10,568 bases of DNA from an uncultured Deinococcales bacterium (GCA_964247135.1 CAXTTL010000171.1:1-10568), one strand, 5' to 3'. Positions 2,881-9,745 are shown, counted from the first letter of the stretch. The notes: generated by a model not told the origin, from the letters alone. Program-made: numbers and translations.

Positions 2881-4296
2881 CTACGGCAGATGTTGCTCGA
2901 GCCAAACCTTGCCCAAACGCTTGATGCCCTCCTCGAGCATGGGTTGATCGCAGGCGGCGAAACTCAGGCGCACAAAAGAACCTGGGGCTTCGGCTGGAAA
3001 CCATGCCCTGCCCGCACTGATTTGCACGCCGGCGGTCGCAGCATGTTGGGCGAACAGAATTTCGTTGCTGCCCTGGGGAAGCTCGAGCCAAACGCTGAAG
3101 CCACCCTTTGGCACGTGCGTCACTTGAGCCTGCGGGAAGTCAAGCGCCAGGGCTTTCAAGGTGGCATCCCTGCGTGCCCTCAGGCGGTCACGGAGGCGCT
3201 TGAGGTGCTTTTGCCAACCTGAACTCGTGACCAGTTCCAAAGCCACCTCCTGAAGCTCCAAACTGACAAACAGATCATCGACGGCTCGGGTCGTGCGCAA
3301 ACGGTTCATGACTGCGCCCTTGGCGATCACGGCGGCAACCCGCAGGCTCGGCGCGGCGCATTTGGAGAGGCTGCGAATGTAGACCACCCGCCCGTCGCCC
3401 TGGGCAAACATTGGCGGCAGCGCCGTCCCGTCCAAGGTCAGTTCGCGGGCGTAATCGTCTTCGATGACAAACGCCCCTGCCCATGCTGCCACGTCCAGCA
3501 CGGCACGGCGACGCTCCAAACCGAGGCTCGAGCCGGTCGGGTTGGCGTAAAGCGGCTGCAAATACACCGCTCGAGCATTGGTGTTTTTGAAGGCAACCTC
3601 GAGCAAATCTGGGCGGATGCCCTCAGAATCGGTTGGCACCGGCACCGCGCGAATGCCAGCCGATTGGGCGACCGCGAGCGCCCCAAAATAGGTCGGGCTT
3701 TCAAACAAGATCGCCTCGCCTGGCGGCACGATGGCTCGCATGGTGCTCGAGACGGCGGCTTGACCCCCAGGCACAATCAGCACATCATTCGCCCGAGCCT
3801 CACCGCCGACGGTTTGCGCAAACCACGCCCGCAACGGCTCGAGTCCGTCCAAGGGTGCCCGCGCCCAAATGCCTGGTCGCCTGCCCGCACGGGTCATGGC
3901 GGCTGCCAGCATCGCCAACGGTTGCAGGCTCTCGTCGGGGTAGCCGCTGCCGAGCGGAATGTTTAAGGCGCTCGGCGGACTCAGCAGGGTCTGAATCTCG
4001 TCGCTGACAATCGTTCGTGCTCCCAAGGTTAAACTCTGCCAACCCAGGTCGCTCGAGTTAACGGCTCTGGGCGGCTCAATCTTGAACGTGCCATGCCCTG
4101 GCTTGGTCACGATCAAACCCGCCCGAACCAAATGTGTGATGGCGCGTTGCACGGTGACTGGGCTGGCTTTGTGGCGCCTCGTCAACTCGCGCACGCTTGG
4201 AACTTGCGTTCCTGGCAGCAATCCCTCGAGTTCGCTCTGAATTTGAAGCGCCAAATGTTCCGAGGCTCTGATCGGTTTGCGCATTTCGCTTTCCAT
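2881..4296 (-). CDS. MocR/GabR-family transcriptional regulator (GntR wHTH plus PLP-dependent aminotransferase-like domain)
   Basis: N-terminal PSVRELTRRHKASPVTVQRA..L...GLIVTKPGHGTF. AAT domain with ESPTY, NPTG, IEDDY and SLSK (PLP lysine), and LRV. Start reassigned to ATG 4296, because the ORF-track extension to 4437 overlaps the EamA gene. Confidence 0.92.
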   Translation of the reverse strand: MESEMRKPIRASEHLALQIQSELEGLLPGTQVPSVRELTRRHKASPVTVQRAITHLVRAGLIVTKPGHGTFKIEPPRAVNSSDLGWQSLTLGARTIVSDEIQTLLSPPSALNIPLGSGYPDESLQPLAMLAAAMTRAGRRPGIWARAPLDGLEPLRAWFAQTVGGEARANDVLIVPGGQAAVSSTMRAIVPPGEAILFESPTYFGALAVAQSAGIRAVPVPTDSEGIRPDLLEVAFKNTNARAVYLQPLYANPTGSSLGLERRRAVLDVAAWAGAFVIEDDYARELTLDGTALPPMFAQGDGRVVYIRSLSKCAAPSLRVAAVIAKGAVMNRLRTTRAVDDLFVSLELQEVALELVTSSGWQKHLKRLRDRLRARRDATLKALALDFPQAQVTHVPKGGFSVWLELPQGSNEILFAQHAATAGVQISAGRAWFPAEAPGSFVRLSFAACDQPMLEEGIKRLGKVWLEQHLP

Positions 4297-4357
4297 GGTG
4301 TTATCATATAACATGAACAGACCCAGTAACGTTACCCTGCAAACCGGAGTAACACCA
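4296..4357. promoter_or_regulatory. Divergent promoter/operator region between MocR and EamA
   Basis: Overlapping -10-like hexamers TATCAT (+, 4302-4307) and TATGAT (-, 4308-4303) sit inside TGTTAT-N3-ATAACA (4299-4313). Also a perfect palindrome GTAACGTTAC (4326-4335) and an inverted pair TGGTGTTA (4296-4303)/TAACACCA (4350-4357). Confidence 0.65.
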
Positions 4358-4378
4358 ACCGCGCGGGGTGCATCATGA
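4313..4378 (+). CDS. Putative 21-aa leaderless uORF (MNRPSNVTLQTGVTPTARGAS) coupled to EamA
   Basis: ATG lies 5 nt after TATCAT, and its TGA overlaps the EamA ATG (ATGA, 4375-4378). Confidence 0.4.
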   Translation: MNRPSNVTLQTGVTPTARGAS

Positions 4379-5301
4379 ACCCGCAACTCGAGCAGCCTGA
4401 CTTGAGGCTTAAAACCACAACCACCAATCACAAACACGATCTCGAGGGAACCATTTACGCCCTGCTCGGAATCTTAATGTTTTCGATGACGCTGACGGCT
4501 TCTCGAGTCATCGTGCCAGTGTTGGGTGGAACGTTTGTGGGTTTGGGACGCGCCGTGCTCGCCGCGACACTTGCCGCAATCGTCCTGATCTCGAGACGCG
4601 AACCGTTTCTCGAACGCCGTTATTGGCGTTCAATCTGCATCACCGCGCTGGGGATTGTGTTTGGTTTCCCGCTCCTCTCGAGCCTTGCCCTCAAGACCAT
4701 TCCCGCCATTCATGCGGTGGTCATCACAGGCTTGCTTCCCGCCATGACCGCCACCCTCGCCGTCATCCGAACTCGAGAACGTACCTCTCCCCTGTTCTGG
4801 GCGGCGGTGGCGCTCGGTGTGGTTGGTGTGCTGGGGTTTGCCGTGATCGAAGGCGCCGGCAAACCCCAACCCGCCGATCTGCTGCTGTTTGGCGCTGGTT
4901 TGCTCGGCGCGGTGGGTTATGTCGAGGGCGGCATTCTGGCAAAAGAAATTGATGGTTGGCGCGTGGTCAGTTGGGCATTGATTTTTTCCTTGCCATTTTT
5001 GATTCCACCCGTGCTGTTCAGTCTCCCCTCGAGCCTCCCAACACAACCCATTGTCTGGATTTGTTTTGTTTACGTCGGCGCGATCAGCATGTACCTCGGG
5101 TTTTTTGCCTGGTACAAAGGCTTGGCACTGGCTGGAATCGCCCGCTCGAGCGCCCTGCAAGTCTTGCAACCCTTGTTCAGCATGGTTTGGGCGGTTTTGC
5201 TGCTGCACGAACAACTGCACGTTCAAACGATTTTTGCCGCCATCATCGTGATTGCCAGCGCGACCCTCTCGAGGTTCGCCCGCATGAAAGGGGCAGCATG
5301 A
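4375..5301 (+). CDS. DMT/EamA-family transporter
   Basis: About 10 hydrophobic segments in two repeats. Motifs GLGRAVLA, LLPAMTA..A..R..ER and FFAWYKGL...Q.LQP......A..LLHE. Typical divergent partner of MocR regulators. Confidence 0.9.
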   Translation: MNPQLEQPDLRLKTTTTNHKHDLEGTIYALLGILMFSMTLTASRVIVPVLGGTFVGLGRAVLAATLAAIVLISRREPFLERRYWRSICITALGIVFGFPLLSSLALKTIPAIHAVVITGLLPAMTATLAVIRTRERTSPLFWAAVALGVVGVLGFAVIEGAGKPQPADLLLFGAGLLGAVGYVEGGILAKEIDGWRVVSWALIFSLPFLIPPVLFSLPSSLPTQPIVWICFVYVGAISMYLGFFAWYKGLALAGIARSSALQVLQPLFSMVWAVLLLHEQLHVQTIFAAIIVIASATLSRFARMKGAA

Positions 5302-5813: not shown

Positions 5814-6335
5814 GTGAAAACGGTGGTCAGTCAGCGTGGTTTGAAATGGTGGGCGAACATTGTCGCTCGAGTTATTCTATTGGGGTGGTTGATCGAAACC
5901 TCTTTTAATTTTGGAAAACTTATCATAATTAAATTACCAACCACAAAATCTTTTGAAATGCAAATTATAACAATTGTTTTTTTTCTCATGTGTTTTATCT
6001 GTATTTTTGTAGTTTTTGAAATTTTAAAACATTTTTTTCAATACACAATTATGGTATCAAAAGATGGAATATACGAAATTATGGGAAATGAGAAAACTTT
6101 TCACTCATTTGAGAATATCAATAAAATTAAAATGCACTTTCATTCGACAAAATACACGCAATGGAAGGAGCTTGAATTATTTTTGGTTAACCAAAAAGAC
6201 TCCGCTATACTTCAAACACGTAGGTTTGATAACACAAGAGAACTTAATCTGGTCATCATGGATCAATCCAGGGTTATCAACCCAGAAATTCAGATTGATA
6301 GTGCATGTCTTACAGCTTATCGGCATCACCCATAG
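5814..6335 (+). CDS. Hypothetical membrane protein (two N-terminal TM segments plus soluble domain), AT-rich
   Basis: A 173-codon ORF stays open in DNA whose sampled 60-nt lines are 18-30% GC. Two hydrophobic stretches. Start uncertain; no recognisable family. Confidence 0.6.
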   Translation: MKTVVSQRGLKWWANIVARVILLGWLIETSFNFGKLIIIKLPTTKSFEMQIITIVFFLMCFICIFVVFEILKHFFQYTIMVSKDGIYEIMGNEKTFHSFENINKIKMHFHSTKYTQWKELELFLVNQKDSAILQTRRFDNTRELNLVIMDQSRVINPEIQIDSACLTAYRHHP

Positions 6336-6449
6336 TCAGTACAACTCGAGTATCAATTGAGTCAGTTATGGTGGCTTTAAATATCTTAGTTTACTTTTTA
6401 AATCTCGAGCCAAGAAATGAGTGCAAACTCGAGTGCTCAGGTTGTTTGG

Positions 6450-6479
6450 TTGACACGATTATGCACTTGCGCATACAAT
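6450..6479 (+). promoter_or_regulatory. Sigma70-type promoter for the mgtE leader
   Basis: TTGACA (6450-6455), 18-nt spacer, TACAAT (6474-6479). Predicted TSS near 6485-6487. Confidence 0.8.
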
Positions 6480-6482
6480 CAC

Positions 6483-6511
6483 GTTGTCTTGAACCTTGCG
6501 TTCAAGACAAC
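6483..6511. repeat. Perfect 12-bp inverted repeat at the predicted TSS
   Basis: GTTGTCTTGAAC-CTTGC-GTTCAAGACAAC. Confidence 0.85.
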
Positions 6512-6540
6512 CCGAGTTCACAGCTTCACACTCGAGTTTT

Positions 6541-6756
6541 AGGAGGTGGTTATGGAACCCATTCCCAGTTCAGGGTCAGTGCCGTTATCTTGCACTTCGG
6601 GTGTTCATGCCGCGCTCCAAACAAAATCTGTTTGAGTTCATCATGACTTCCTGACCTGAATTCGCTTCGGGCGCGGTATCGTGCTCCATTCCCTGAATGT
6701 TGTCACCAAATGTTCGGGCGTTGCTCTTTGCGGGCATCAGGAGGTGAAATCATGAT
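6541..6756 (+). promoter_or_regulatory. Structured cis-regulatory leader of mgtE with alternative anti-RBS / anti-anti-RBS pairings
   Basis: 6640-6654 is complementary to the mgtE SD and ATG (6737-6756). Alternatively 6651-6662 pairs with 6567-6579, and 6642-6646 pairs with 6605-6609. Confidence 0.65.
6552..6635 (+). CDS. Putative mgtE leader peptide, 27 aa (MEPIPSSGSVPLSCTSGVHAALQTKSV)
   Basis: Perfect SD AGGAGGT at 6541-6547, ATG 6552, TGA 6633-6635. Pro at codons 3, 5 and 11. Confidence 0.6.
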   Translation: MEPIPSSGSVPLSCTSGVHAALQTKSV

Positions 6757-8149
6757 TCTTGAAGGTACAACGCTACAGCCGCTCGAGTTGCTCGAGGTTT
6801 TAAAAGAGGGTCGGCGCGACGAGTTTAAAGGTTTGCTGCGAAGCCAGCCCGAAACCGTGGTGGACGCGGCGTTCGAGGATGCAACCCGTGACGAACGCTT
6901 GGAATTCTTGCGTTTGATGCCGGTCGAACGGGCGGCGAACACGTTCACGGATTTGTCGCTCGAGGATCAAAGCGATTTCTTGCCCGATCTGTCCAGCGAC
7001 CGCATTCGGGTCATGGGCGCGTTTTTTGGTCCGGACGAAATGGCAGATTTGCTGGGCGAACTCGAGTCGGACGCGGATGCCAGGGCGTATCTGATCTCGA
7101 GTTTGCCGCCGACCCTCGCCAAAAGTGCGCTCGAACTCGAGTTGTACCCCGACGATGACGCGGGCGGTATGATGACGCCAGAATTTGTGGCGGTGCGTGA
7201 GGGTTGGAGCGTCGGGCACGCGATTCAATTTTTGCGCCAAGCCGCAGACCACGCCGAGACGGTGCAGAATCTGTATTTGGTGAACACAGGCGGTCAATTG
7301 CGCGGCATCATTCCGCTTCAAGCGTTAATCACCGCACCCGCAATGGCAAAAGTCGAAGACTTGGCGCGGCTCGAGATTATTTTTGCCAGAACCGACACAG
7401 GTCAAGAAGAGGTTTCGCGCCTGATGCGCGATTACGATTTGGCGGTCATGCCAATTGTCGATGAATCTGGGGTTCTAAAAGGAATTGTCACGATTGACGA
7501 TGTGATTGACGTACTCGAGGAGGAAGCCACCGATGATATTTACAAGGGCGCGGCGATTCAGGGTGGCGAGTTCGAGTACCGAACCGCCAGTCCGTTTTTG
7601 CTGTGGCGCAAACGCATTGGCTGGTTGTTGATTTTGTTTGTGACCGAAAGTTTAACCGCAAATGTGATCGGGGCTTACGACGGACTGATTAAGGCTGCAC
7701 CGTTGCTGGCAGTTTATTTGCCCACTTTGATCGGGACTGGTGGCAATACAGGATCGCAATCGGCGACCTTGGTCATTCGGGCGATTGCGTTGGGTGAAAT
7801 TCGAGGGCGCGACGCCTGGCGGGTGATGTTCAAAGAACTTGGTGCTGGGTTATTGATTGGCGCGACGATTGGCATTGTGGCTTTTGCCCGAATTGTGTTG
7901 TTTCGCCGAAATCAGGGTTTGGGCTTGGCGCTCACGGCGGCAATTTCGATGTTTCTGATTGCCATTTTTGCCAACATCACTGGGGCGTTGCTGCCGATTT
8001 TGTTTAAGAAACTCAAAGTCGATCCCGCGTTAACCTCCAGTCCATTTTTGGCAACGGTCATGGATGCAACGGGCTTGTTGATCTATTTTGGGCTGGCACA
8101 ATTTTTGATTCATTTGGGCATCTATCAACTCGAGCCGATCAAACCATGA
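6752..8149 (+). CDS. mgtE: Magnesium transporter MgtE (N domain, CBS pair, 5-TM domain)
   Basis: AGGMMTPEFVAV, GIVTIDDVIDVLEEEATDDI, GTGGNTGSQ and DPALTSSPFLATVMDATGLLIY with the pore Asp. SD AGGAGGT at 6739-6745 supports ATG 6752. Confidence 0.96.
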   Translation: MILEGTTLQPLELLEVLKEGRRDEFKGLLRSQPETVVDAAFEDATRDERLEFLRLMPVERAANTFTDLSLEDQSDFLPDLSSDRIRVMGAFFGPDEMADLLGELESDADARAYLISSLPPTLAKSALELELYPDDDAGGMMTPEFVAVREGWSVGHAIQFLRQAADHAETVQNLYLVNTGGQLRGIIPLQALITAPAMAKVEDLARLEIIFARTDTGQEEVSRLMRDYDLAVMPIVDESGVLKGIVTIDDVIDVLEEEATDDIYKGAAIQGGEFEYRTASPFLLWRKRIGWLLILFVTESLTANVIGAYDGLIKAAPLLAVYLPTLIGTGGNTGSQSATLVIRAIALGEIRGRDAWRVMFKELGAGLLIGATIGIVAFARIVLFRRNQGLGLALTAAISMFLIAIFANITGALLPILFKKLKVDPALTSSPFLATVMDATGLLIYFGLAQFLIHLGIYQLEPIKP

Positions 8150-8184: not shown

Positions 8185-8215
8185 GGCTCGAGCCAACCTC
8201 GAGCCTGTTTCATTT
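8185..8215 (+). terminator. Possible terminator hairpin between convergent mgtE and glutaminyl cyclase genes
   Basis: GGCTCGAG-CCAAC-CTCGAGCC (8185-8205) followed by TGTTTCATTT, a weak U-tract. Confidence 0.5.
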
Positions 8216-8980
8216 GATTTCGATCTCGTATAAAAATGCCCAGTATTTTCCGGTCACAAAAATACGTTTTGTGGCGGCATCATAGGCAATTCCGTTTAAA
8301 ACCGCATCCGGATTTTCGGTCCCAAATTTTGGTTTTAAGCCCGTCAGGTCAATGTATGCCGTTATTTTGCCGGTGGTCGGGTTGATACGGGCAATCTTAT
8401 TCGTATACCAAATGTTTGCCCATATTTCGCCGTTGATCCACTCGAGTTCGTTGATCTGATTGATTGGCTTTCCACCGTCGGTCACTTCCAGGGTTTTGAT
8501 GGTTTTAAAATCGCTGGCGTTGCGGAAGTAAATGGTGCTCGAGCCGTCGGATTGAATCAGGTTTTTGCCGTCGGTGCTCAAACCCCAACCTTGGGTGTCA
8601 TATGGCAGGGTTTTGAGGAGTTTAAAATTGCTCGAGTAGACAAAAGCGGTTTTGCTGAGCCACGTCAGTTGATAAAATTTGCCATTCAGGTAGCTTAAAC
8701 CTTCGCCAAATTTGTCGGCTGGAAGGGGCTGTTTTTGAATCACCTCGCCCGTTTCGAGCTTCACTTTGCGAATGTCGCTGTGCCCGTTTTGTCCGGTGCT
8801 TTCAAACAAAAACCCGTCTTTGTAGAGCAGTCCTTCGGTATAAGCCGTTGGGTCGTGCAGGTAGGTATTTAAGATTTTGTAACCTTGAACGGGCGTGCTC
8901 GGATTTTGTGAGTACACCCTAGACGCGAGAAAGCCCAAACTCGAGATCACAAGACAAATCACGGCGCTGCGTTTGTTCAT
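8210..8980 (-). CDS. Glutaminyl-peptide cyclotransferase (plant/bacterial beta-propeller type), secreted
   Basis: HDPTAYTEGL, ESTG, FGEGL, QLTW, GWGL, SDGS, NELE, ANIW, VLNGIAYD and VTGKYW motifs. N-terminal signal peptide; SD AGGA upstream. Confidence 0.92.
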   Translation of the reverse strand: MNKRSAVICLVISSLGFLASRVYSQNPSTPVQGYKILNTYLHDPTAYTEGLLYKDGFLFESTGQNGHSDIRKVKLETGEVIQKQPLPADKFGEGLSYLNGKFYQLTWLSKTAFVYSSNFKLLKTLPYDTQGWGLSTDGKNLIQSDGSSTIYFRNASDFKTIKTLEVTDGGKPINQINELEWINGEIWANIWYTNKIARINPTTGKITAYIDLTGLKPKFGTENPDAVLNGIAYDAATKRIFVTGKYWAFLYEIEIK

Positions 8981-9021: not shown

Positions 9022-9669
9022 TTATTTTTTGACAGGGGTGGTCGTGCTGTTGACCGCCACCACTTTGGTTTTGTCGCCCACTTGAAATGCCACGAACGAG
9101 TAGGACTGCGTCGATTGCAGCCGCAATTTAAAGCTCGAGTTTTTCTTGTCCTTGCTGTAGGCGTCAAAACTGATGCTGAGGGGGTTGACCAAAATATCTT
9201 GACTGGCGTTTGGCTTTAAATCTTTAAAAACGCTGGTGCCATCGCTTGTTTTGATGCTGAGCAGGTCGCTCGAGAAGTTGTAGGCGAGCAATTGGGCTTT
9301 GACTTTGTTGGCAATTTTTTTGTCGTTAAAGCTTTTGACGCTCAAATTGTTGCTCGCGCCGACGATTGCCAGGGTATAAAACTTGCCCGCTTTCGCTGTC
9401 AACGTGGCACTTGTTTTGTTGGTTCCACTTTGCATTTCAAAGCTGTGATTGCCCGCCTTGAGCACTTCATAGGGCAGAATCCCTTGGGCGGTCAGCGCGG
9501 CAATCCAGGGTTTGCCATCGAGTTTAACGGCTATCGGTGACGCCCCCAACTCCGCGTCAATGATTCGCACGAAGCTCGAGTTGGCGGGCGGTTCTGGGGC
9601 GTACAGTCCTTGCGCCAGGGCTATTGGGGTCAAAACGATCAACAGGCTCAACATCTTGGTGGGTTTCAT
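9022..9669 (-). CDS. algF: AlgF-like periplasmic O-acetylation accessory protein
   Basis: Signal peptide ending ALA, then GLYAPEPPANSSFVRII matching the AlgF N-terminal LY.P.PP..SAFVR pattern. Two beta-rich repeats; adjacent to an AlgX/AlgJ-like gene. Start ATG 9669 is preferred (AAAGGA upstream). Confidence 0.78.
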   Translation of the reverse strand: MKPTKMLSLLIVLTPIALAQGLYAPEPPANSSFVRIIDAELGASPIAVKLDGKPWIAALTAQGILPYEVLKAGNHSFEMQSGTNKTSATLTAKAGKFYTLAIVGASNNLSVKSFNDKKIANKVKAQLLAYNFSSDLLSIKTSDGTSVFKDLKPNASQDILVNPLSISFDAYSKDKKNSSFKLRLQSTQSYSFVAFQVGDKTKVVAVNSTTTPVKK

Positions 9670-9745
9670 GGGTCCTTTCAAAACGCGTCTGCTCGAGTTT
9701 GAACAAACCTGATGAATTTTGAATGAAGTCCTGATTGTACCGAAC

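Follow-up and report, generated by a model that had tools for sequence, protein, structure and literature searches.

What controls the Mg2+ channel gene mgtE in Deinococcales, and what is a short open reading frame (ORF) doing in the leader in front of it? mgtE is usually pictured under the control of the M-box riboswitch, its usual regulator in Firmicutes, which needs no ORF; ribosome-mediated sensing of Mg2+ on a leader ORF is known mainly from the enteric genes mgtA, mgtCBR and corA. We analysed a 10,568-nt stretch of DNA from an uncultured Deinococcales bacterium (hereafter the window), for which the original prediction was that mutually exclusive RNA helices hide (OFF fold) or expose (ON fold) the mgtE ribosome-binding site (RBS), with the position of a ribosome on the leader ORF (uORF) selecting the fold. 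The reading that we favour, tentatively and with a little less than even confidence, is that the leader is a leader-ORF translational attenuator of mgtE that turns the gene on when Mg2+ is low. The gene and its promoter region comprise the following features:

6450..6479, + strand: promoter-like site, TTGACA (6450–6455), 18-nt spacer and TACAAT (6474–6479), with 11/12 matches
6483..6511, + strand: perfect 12-bp inverted repeat (6483–6494/6500–6511) with a 5-nt spacer, from reading of the sequence
6752..8149, + strand: mgtE, 465 codons, with Pfam MgtE_N, CBS and MgtE domains

The ATG at 6752–6754 is also the start used by mgtE orthologues. The promoter is likely to be a strong sigma-70-like one with a transcript start at ~6486, which would give an mgtE leader running from ~6486 to 6751, and GGTTGACAC is retained upstream of the mgtE leaders of relatives. 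The arms of the inverted repeat, GTTGTCTTGAAC and GTTCAAGACAAC, lie at the predicted transcript start and form a hairpin in folds that begin at 6486; the repeat is only partly retained in same-genus leaders and could either stabilise the 5' end as a hairpin or serve as the operator of a repressor. A 113-amino-acid ORF at 6305–6646 was treated as spurious because it has no Pfam match and is not retained as an ORF in relatives.

The mgtE promoter is separated from an upstream 173-codon ORF (5814–6335), for which there was no Pfam match, by a terminator-like hairpin (6418–6439) whose tail is rich in T and which would close the preceding unit; also upstream are an EamA transporter gene (4375–5301) and, on the minus strand, a gene for a GntR-aminotransferase fusion regulator (2881–4437). 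The other neighbours, both on the minus strand, encode a glutamine cyclotransferase (8210–8980) and an AlgF-like/DUF4397 protein (9022–9681). The genome has an unusual palindrome content: CTCGAG ranks top of all 4096 hexamers (33,925 copies in 5.09 Mb, ~1 per 150 bp; 77 in the window) and is also abundant in the loci of relatives, and GAGCTC (0 copies), CGGCCG (3), CGTACG (5), CCGCGG (11) and GCATGC (17) are nearly absent from the 5.09-Mb genome.

Within the leader, the uORF and two segments overlapping it were defined as follows:

6552..6635, + strand: uORF of 27 codons, by ORF reading, encoding the peptide MEPIPSSGSVPLSCTSGVHAALQTKSV and ending in TGA (6633–6635)
6541..6561, + strand: segment A, made up of the uORF Shine–Dalgarno (SD) sequence (6541–6548), its ATG (6552–6554) and codons 2–3; pairs with segment B
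6598..6619, + strand: segment B, the codon 16–23 block (G-V-H-A), which a duplex search matches to A; its 5' part is also complementary to segment C (below)

The uORF SD, AGGAGGTG, is well spaced from the ATG. Its conservation was assessed in 19 species genomes (GTDB) representing five genera of an uncultured Deinococcales family; 18 of these harbour an mgtE orthologue, and with two loci cut by contig ends this left 16 readable leaders. All 16 carry a uORF of 22–33 codons with an SD-like site, the conserved short ORF with start context that would be expected of leader-peptide attenuators in general; neither of the two corA genes of the window's genome has a comparable leader ORF. An initial pattern scan of genome contigs had given 10 matches, of which six were true leaders in uncultured Deinococcales MAGs and four (L017, L018, L020 and L022) were chance matches inside unrelated coding DNA. 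A metagenome scan for MgtE returned 25 loci and added no leaders, as all were at ≤ 35% identity.

Leaders from the five species of the window's genus are ~85% identical overall, and only one base differs between them over the stretch that begins with the SD and ends with codon 15; at the nucleotide level, silent sites included, these species keep the 5' half of the uORF all but constant. The first 10 codons are 94–97% identical in other genera, and what the peptides have in common across genera is a part rich in acidic residues and proline together with a P-L-S motif. The codons of the P-L-S motif differ synonymously (CCG/CCC/CCT, TTA/CTT and TCT/TCG/AGT, with a change from S to R in one leader), and none of the three changes within DPEPLS in genus g5 alters the peptide. 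This synonymous variation, which includes the use of TCT/TCG as well as AGT for serine, points to selection acting on the P-L-S part of the peptide. The G-V-H-A block, by comparison, is kept as RNA: in one same-genus species (leader L005, genome G005) a 1-nt indel at codons 15–16 shifts the frame to give MEPIPSSGSVPLSCTCRCSCHSPNKICLSS but leaves segment B intact at the base level, the indel being either real or a MAG assembly error. The start context of the uORF and its position relative to segment C are kept across the five genera, in which MgtE is 61–65% identical to that of the window. From these comparisons the uORF is a real, conserved leader ORF and is probably a translated regulatory one.

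Constraint at the peptide level on P-L-S and DPEPLS is also what would be expected if the 27-residue product were a small protein acting in trans, for instance on MgtE. This is highly improbable given that the C-terminal half of the peptide is freely variable, and frameshifted in one species, that its length ranges from 22 to 33 residues without a hydrophobic segment, and that the ORF overlaps three pairing segments.

We searched for known RNA families that could account for the leader without the uORF. With Rfam 15, which we take to include the enterobacterial mgtA Mg sensor, there were no matches at the gathering score in the window or in 24 related loci; a strong match is what the original prediction had named as removing novelty. 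Relaxing the threshold to E values up to 10 in region 6330–6800 returned neither the M-box (ykoK, RF00380) nor any other family. The M-box likewise precedes mgtE and has the same presumed signal; it was found in none of the 19 family genomes in a search to which the control genomes of B. subtilis and L. lactis responded. Another element found in front of mgtE is the 'mgtE motif', a riboswitch candidate whose long imperfect stem has the SD and AUG at its base; the part of its report available to us places it only in Thioalkalivibrio, a single gammaproteobacterial genus, and mentions no uORF, and the comparison is by description rather than alignment (PMC11109978).

Direct sensing of Mg2+ by the leader RNA had been raised as an alternative. 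Sensing of Mg2+ or another ligand by the RNA, as a riboswitch or a Mg2+-stabilised helix with the uORF incidental or an effector, would fit with the freezing of the 5' half of the uORF at silent sites in five species, with the preservation of the G-V-H-A block as RNA despite a frame shift, and with the locking of both start sites by ~9 kcal/mol (see below). We consider it quite improbable, as along with the negative Rfam and M-box searches there is no conserved multi-helix junction and the leaders vary widely in both length and sequence between genera outside A, B, C and D; a purely RNA-based sensor is also at odds with peptide-level constraint on the P-L-S codons and a start codon with SD-like site in 16/16 leaders.

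The pairing of A with B was absent from the original prediction. In the window this helix has 18 pairs and covers the SD and AUG of the uORF itself, and a search across the entire leader gave the same codon block, B, as the best match to A in all 16 leaders, with energies of -17 to -27 kcal/mol that were equalled by 0–42 of 300 shuffles. A:B was also part of the RNAalifold consensus of six leaders for both the full transcript and the transcript ending before segment D (pre-D transcript). At one A:B position nine leaders have a G-C pair and the other seven an A-U pair, remaining changes being wobble-compatible, and in C:D the flanks of the SD and their partners differ together between lineages; the partner tables for A:B and C:D from which these observations come favour pairing, because they were fitted sequence by sequence. 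After realignment with a covariance model, 82.4% of cells were paired compared with 36–55% when the register was slid. Covariation was not significant by comparison with column shuffles (82.4% versus 82.6% of cells paired, with one compensatory pair). The covariance model, R1, finds the 16 family leaders only and a single copy in the window's genome.

Downstream of A and B, the segments and hairpins that bear on the mgtE start are:

6567..6579, + strand: segment 1', uORF codons 6–10, AGTTCAGGGTCAG, the partner of C in the ON fold as originally predicted (pairing check)
6618..6634, + strand: hairpin CAAACA/TGTTTG, ending in the uORF stop codon, with 93.8% of cells paired and wobble-compatible changes
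6640..6662, + strand: segment C, anti-SD/anti-start, ATCATGA CTTCCTGA CCTGAAT, with a tandem CCTGA
6669..6686, + strand: conserved hairpin inside the C:D loop (6669–6675/6680–6686), 97.6% paired and present in minimum free energy (MFE) and consensus folds
6692..6718, + strand: local hairpin (6692–6701/6709–6718) with a weakly terminator-like score, competing with the extension of the OFF helix
6722..6736, + strand: small hairpin TGCTC/GGGCA directly 5' of the mgtE SD (pairing check and consensus fold)
6737..6756, + strand: segment D, the mgtE SD AGGAGGTG (6739–6746) and start ATG (6752–6754)

Segment C begins 5 nt after the uORF stop and has several possible partners: D, A, 1'/B or its own sequence in a hairpin (6634–6640/6657–6663). 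The OFF fold was predicted to close D with C, and its pairs 6640–6646/6750–6756 and 6647–6654/6737–6744 proved to be standard pairs throughout; the accompanying hairpin is present as 6722–6726/6732–6736. The proposed extension of this helix (6655–6661/6712–6718) can also pair, but MFE and consensus folds prefer the local hairpin 6692–6701/6709–6718.

The strength of these pairings was compared with chance by shuffling C against each partner. In the window, C:D has an energy of -22.3 kcal/mol that was equalled by 10 of 500 shuffles, and pairing of C with the uORF body has an energy of -17.5 kcal/mol, equalled by 85 of 500; the two energies were equalled jointly by only 3 of 1000. For five same-genus leaders, tested over the 34 nt that follow the uORF (a window that was not fitted), the corresponding values of 300 shuffles were 0–99 (U:C), 0–6 (A:C), 9–24 (C:D) and 0–3 (joint), values that are not independent as the leaders are close kin. 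An earlier duplex scan with a 26-nt D window was too permissive (3–185 of 200 shuffles) and was replaced by these tests.

The OFF helix is present in the MFE structures of 6530–6770 (z -1.63) and 6536–6763. It recurs, shifted by one CCUGA repeat, when six leaders are folded together with RNAalifold. Across these six leaders the OFF pairs are kept in 96.3% and the ON pairs in 97.6% of cells, compared with 12–46% when slid. Covariation, which had been proposed as a check on orthologous leaders and whose lack had been named as refuting the switch, was next to nil: the OFF and ON folds have no compensatory pairs across six leaders, and for A:B the shuffles equalled the observed value.

An anti-SD follows the uORF stop directly in four of the five genera (g1, g4, g3b and g2); C lies 5 nt past the stop in g1 and g3b and 8 nt past it in g2, and overlaps it in g4 and g5. 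In g5, C:D was at chance level (83–243 of 300 shuffles), and a B:C hairpin that holds the stop (GGGGUUCA/UGAACCCC) is kept in 7/7 leaders. Three closely related g5 leaders suggested a terminator by eye, in the form of a 7–8-bp stem (GGGGTTCA/TGAACCC(C)) with a T-run behind it; the idea was discarded, as the T-run is missing from the other four leaders and a terminator scan, which rejects the stem because its loop is too long, called none in the leader tested. Overall there was no conserved intrinsic terminator in the leaders, the window having one weak, genome-specific terminator-like site at 6692–6718. Taken with the folding models, an RBS-sequestering C:D helix is credible.

For the ON fold, the complementarity that had been predicted is real: codons 6–10 lie at 6567–6579 as placed, the pairs 6567–6574/6655–6662, 6576–6579/6651–6654 (with G6575 bulged) and 6605–6609/6642–6646 are all standard, and the CAAACA/TGTTTG hairpin at the uORF stop forms from 6618–6623 and 6629–6634. 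The further pairing predicted between C and the uORF's own SD/ATG was likewise found (-17.5 kcal/mol; 26 of 500 shuffles in the window). The ON fold itself was not, however, preferred by consensus folding of the pre-D transcript, which gave A:B plus the C self-hairpin 6634–6640/6657–6663. It was the MFE structure of the pre-D transcript only with the 5' end at 6536, and with the 5' end at 6486 neither the full nor the pre-D MFE structure held the folds of the original prediction; the full structure then lacked C:D, and B paired instead with 6672–6678. Predicted folds thus vary, being dependent on the ends chosen. The pairing 6610–6616/6672–6678 (GCCGCGC/GCGCGGU) is genome-specific, the other four species of the genus having GAGCAC at the second site.

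Ribosome positions on the uORF were then represented as footprint constraints. In free RNA each start site, that of the uORF and that of mgtE, costs ~9 kcal/mol to open, the cost for D in the window being 8.5–8.9 kcal/mol. The notion that ribosome position selects an open mgtE site was not borne out at equilibrium in the window, where the site remained closed, at 7.5–11.1 kcal/mol, wherever the ribosome was placed. A ribosome at approximately codons 3–7 lowered the cost of opening D by 1–4 kcal/mol in all six leaders modelled, and one at approximately codons 9–17 raised it above the free-RNA level in five of the six; in the sixth (g5, genome G017) the cost only returned to about that level. 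These ensembles lend modest backing to the reading in which a ribosome on the early codons opens mgtE.

A structured leader that simply dampens mgtE translation constitutively, or stabilises the mRNA, with a small ORF that has no regulatory role, would account for D being closed in every state modelled at equilibrium in the window and for the lack of significant covariation; the threefold complementarity of C is also partly automatic, because an anti-SD will pair with any SD. We regard the absence of a switch as improbable nevertheless, since it leaves unexplained the retention of the uORF, together with its start context and its placement with respect to C, over five genera with MgtE proteins 61–65% identical to the window's, the analogous arrangements in sister families (below), and a joint energy for uORF-body:C and C:D in the window that only 3/1000 shuffles equalled.

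The consensus of six leaders indicates that, left alone, the RNA folds as A:B plus C:D with both start sites hidden. As modelled, the architecture is a four-segment chain in which A:B and C:D compete with B/1':C or A:C. In the favoured reading, that of a translational attenuator turned on by low Mg2+, a ribosome lingering or aborting in the first codons (MEPIPSS, acidic/proline-rich as in MgtL) would block A:B; the freed B and the neighbouring 1' would capture C, D would be left open and MgtE would be made. A run-through ribosome would cover 1' and B and so release C, allowing C:D to close, and C:D would also keep the mgtE site closed without any uORF translation. The choice would fall while the RNA is being transcribed or soon afterwards; a kinetic switch is demanded both because the open state is the less stable one and because the cost of opening D in the window ranges only from 7.5 to 11.1 kcal/mol. 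By analogy with the enteric systems, from which we also infer the direction of the response, the likeliest signal is Mg2+ in the cytoplasm, working through the ribosome, and low Mg2+ would turn mgtE on.

The same device may work with the opposite sign, uORF translation switching mgtE on as the terminating ribosome covers or unwinds C and D opens; the untranslated state, A:B plus C:D, would then be off, and the Mg2+-dependent stability of A:B would set the rate. C does lie within or at the edge of the footprint of the terminating ribosome across the family, and a ribosome at the last codons cuts the cost of opening D both in g4, from 11.3 to 4–6 kcal/mol, and in g3b, from 9.7 to 5.9 kcal/mol; in the part of the Salmonella study available, translation of mgtQ frees the mgtB RBS (PMC8092293). 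The last-codon ribosome brought no relief in the window (9.1–10.8 kcal/mol), however, or in g2 (8.5 compared with 7.8 kcal/mol in free RNA), and on the short uORF of genus g9 (below) it would cover the decoy arm and free the anti-SD. Moreover, if acidic/proline-rich codons provoke abortion at low Mg2+, this arrangement would lower MgtE just when Mg2+ is scarce. We therefore consider the opposite sign unlikely, though a real contender.

A uORF-dependent translational attenuator, as originally proposed, remains the best reading, with a uORF in 16/16 leaders, an anti-SD in 4/5 genera, no riboswitch match and the logic of mgtQ-mgtB in its favour; the case is comparative and thermodynamic, and the two checks requested with the prediction gave no significant covariation and, in the window, an mgtE site that stayed closed under every footprint. 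Judged from conservation and folding, the leader is probably a uORF-dependent attenuator of the MgtL/MgtQ kind.

The closest parallel is the mgtQ-mgtB device of Salmonella, for which the accessible portion of the report describes 1:2 and 3:4 helices competing with 2:3, occlusion of the RBS and translational control, with mgtQ translation promoting mgtB translation by freeing the mgtB RBS (PMC8092293). In both, as far as that portion goes, a short ORF overlaps segment 1, helix 3:4 hides the RBS of a Mg2+ transporter gene, and acidic codons feature: ribosome-destabilising ones matter in mgtQ, and the window uORF is acidic/proline-rich. The counterpart of segment 1 in helix 1:2 is overlapped by the uORF through A:B in 16/16 leaders; the RBS-occluding helix 3:4 corresponds to C:D, at chance level in g5; and the equivalent of 2:3, 1'/B:C, is present as complementarity that is neither the preferred pre-D fold nor accompanied by covariation. 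On the same partial account the systems differ in that they share no sequence similarity, mgtB encodes a P-type ATPase and mgtE a channel, the mgtQ ORF has 8 codons rather than 27 and lies between operon genes rather than in a 5' leader, and mgtQ-mgtB is a tested device, whereas the present one is known from sequence and has the uORF's own ribosome-binding site as segment 1.

MgtL, which precedes the Mg2+ importer gene mgtA in E. coli and Salmonella, resembles the window uORF in starting M-E-P with spaced prolines and, in the part of the source available, in that finishing or aborting translation of the leader ORF chooses the RNA fold. Glutamate is at position 2 in 22 of the 29 leader peptides listed. 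The output of MgtL is transcription termination; here the RBS is occluded, no conserved terminator was seen and no Rfam family matched. Translation aborts more at low Mg2+ at the N-terminal EPDP of MgtL, and the available text gives as a rule at least four D/E/P in an N-terminal six-residue window (10.1101/2021.02.02.429294). By that rule, as given there, the window peptide falls short (EPIPSS, 3/6 D/E/P), and 8/16 family leaders (g2 and g5) and one sister-family leader conform to it. We found no published description of an mgtE leader-ORF device in the Deinococcales group in the open-access library searched; within that scope the design is known from enteric bacteria and is not described for mgtE or for Deinococcales. 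If the favoured reading is true, the ribosome as a Mg2+ sensor would be a recurrent solution, reached also in a distant phylum without an M-box.

Comparable leaders were sought beyond the family by an order-level MgtE search, which gave matches in 85 of 121 genomes. In sister families there are leaders whose uORF begins ME(D/G), with an anti-SD CUUCCUUCC and with A:B, A:C and C:D available as in the family. They were present at 7/9 g13 loci (an eighth being a variant in which the frame has no stop), at both loci of g22 and that of g24, in two f4 genera and at 1/15 f2 loci; a further ten f4 loci and a single g30 locus did not have them. Model R1 detected none of 61 order-level loci at E values up to 1, which leaves homology across families unsupported, and the relationship between family and sister-family leaders is, from their sequences, a likeness of design.

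A different arrangement was found in genus g9 of a sister family, where 19/20 loci (L071–L091) have an 11–13-codon ORF (M..ALPSSPRP) ~110 nt upstream of mgtE. Its stop lies in arm 1, the 5' arm, of a hairpin (AAGGCCGCC), and the 3' arm, arm 2 (GGCGGCCUUC), matches arm 1 and is also fully complementary to the mgtE SD (GGAGGCCGCC), which reads as a clean three-segment switch. The hairpin is 96.5% paired in 18 leaders, with two compensatory pairs (25 of 500 shuffles). The g9 uORF may be leaderless, as it begins 9 nt past a -10-like TAGGCT. The MgtE of g9 gives a 441-residue alignment to the solved structures 2yvx/2zy9 of MgtE, which we take to be from Thermus thermophilus.

These leaders suggest a broader idea, which we hold as distinctly doubtful: that mgtE leader ORFs might be lineage-wide ribosome-based Mg2+ sensors in the Deinococcus-Thermus group (the family, its sisters and the relatives of crystallised MgtE), and that (D/E)P...P-L-S might be a new nascent-chain arrest/abort signal, independent of MgtL and wired to a self-locking uORF start. 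With g9-type leaders beside 2yvx/2zy9-like MgtE, the idea would be within reach in the organism used for ribosome and MgtE structures. Two aberrant leaders were noted among the order-level loci: L087 (genome G075), in which the uORF start is ATT and the hairpin arms differ, and L108 (G034), whose GTG-started frame reaches mgtE without meeting a stop; both genomes also have a second, weaker MgtE match.
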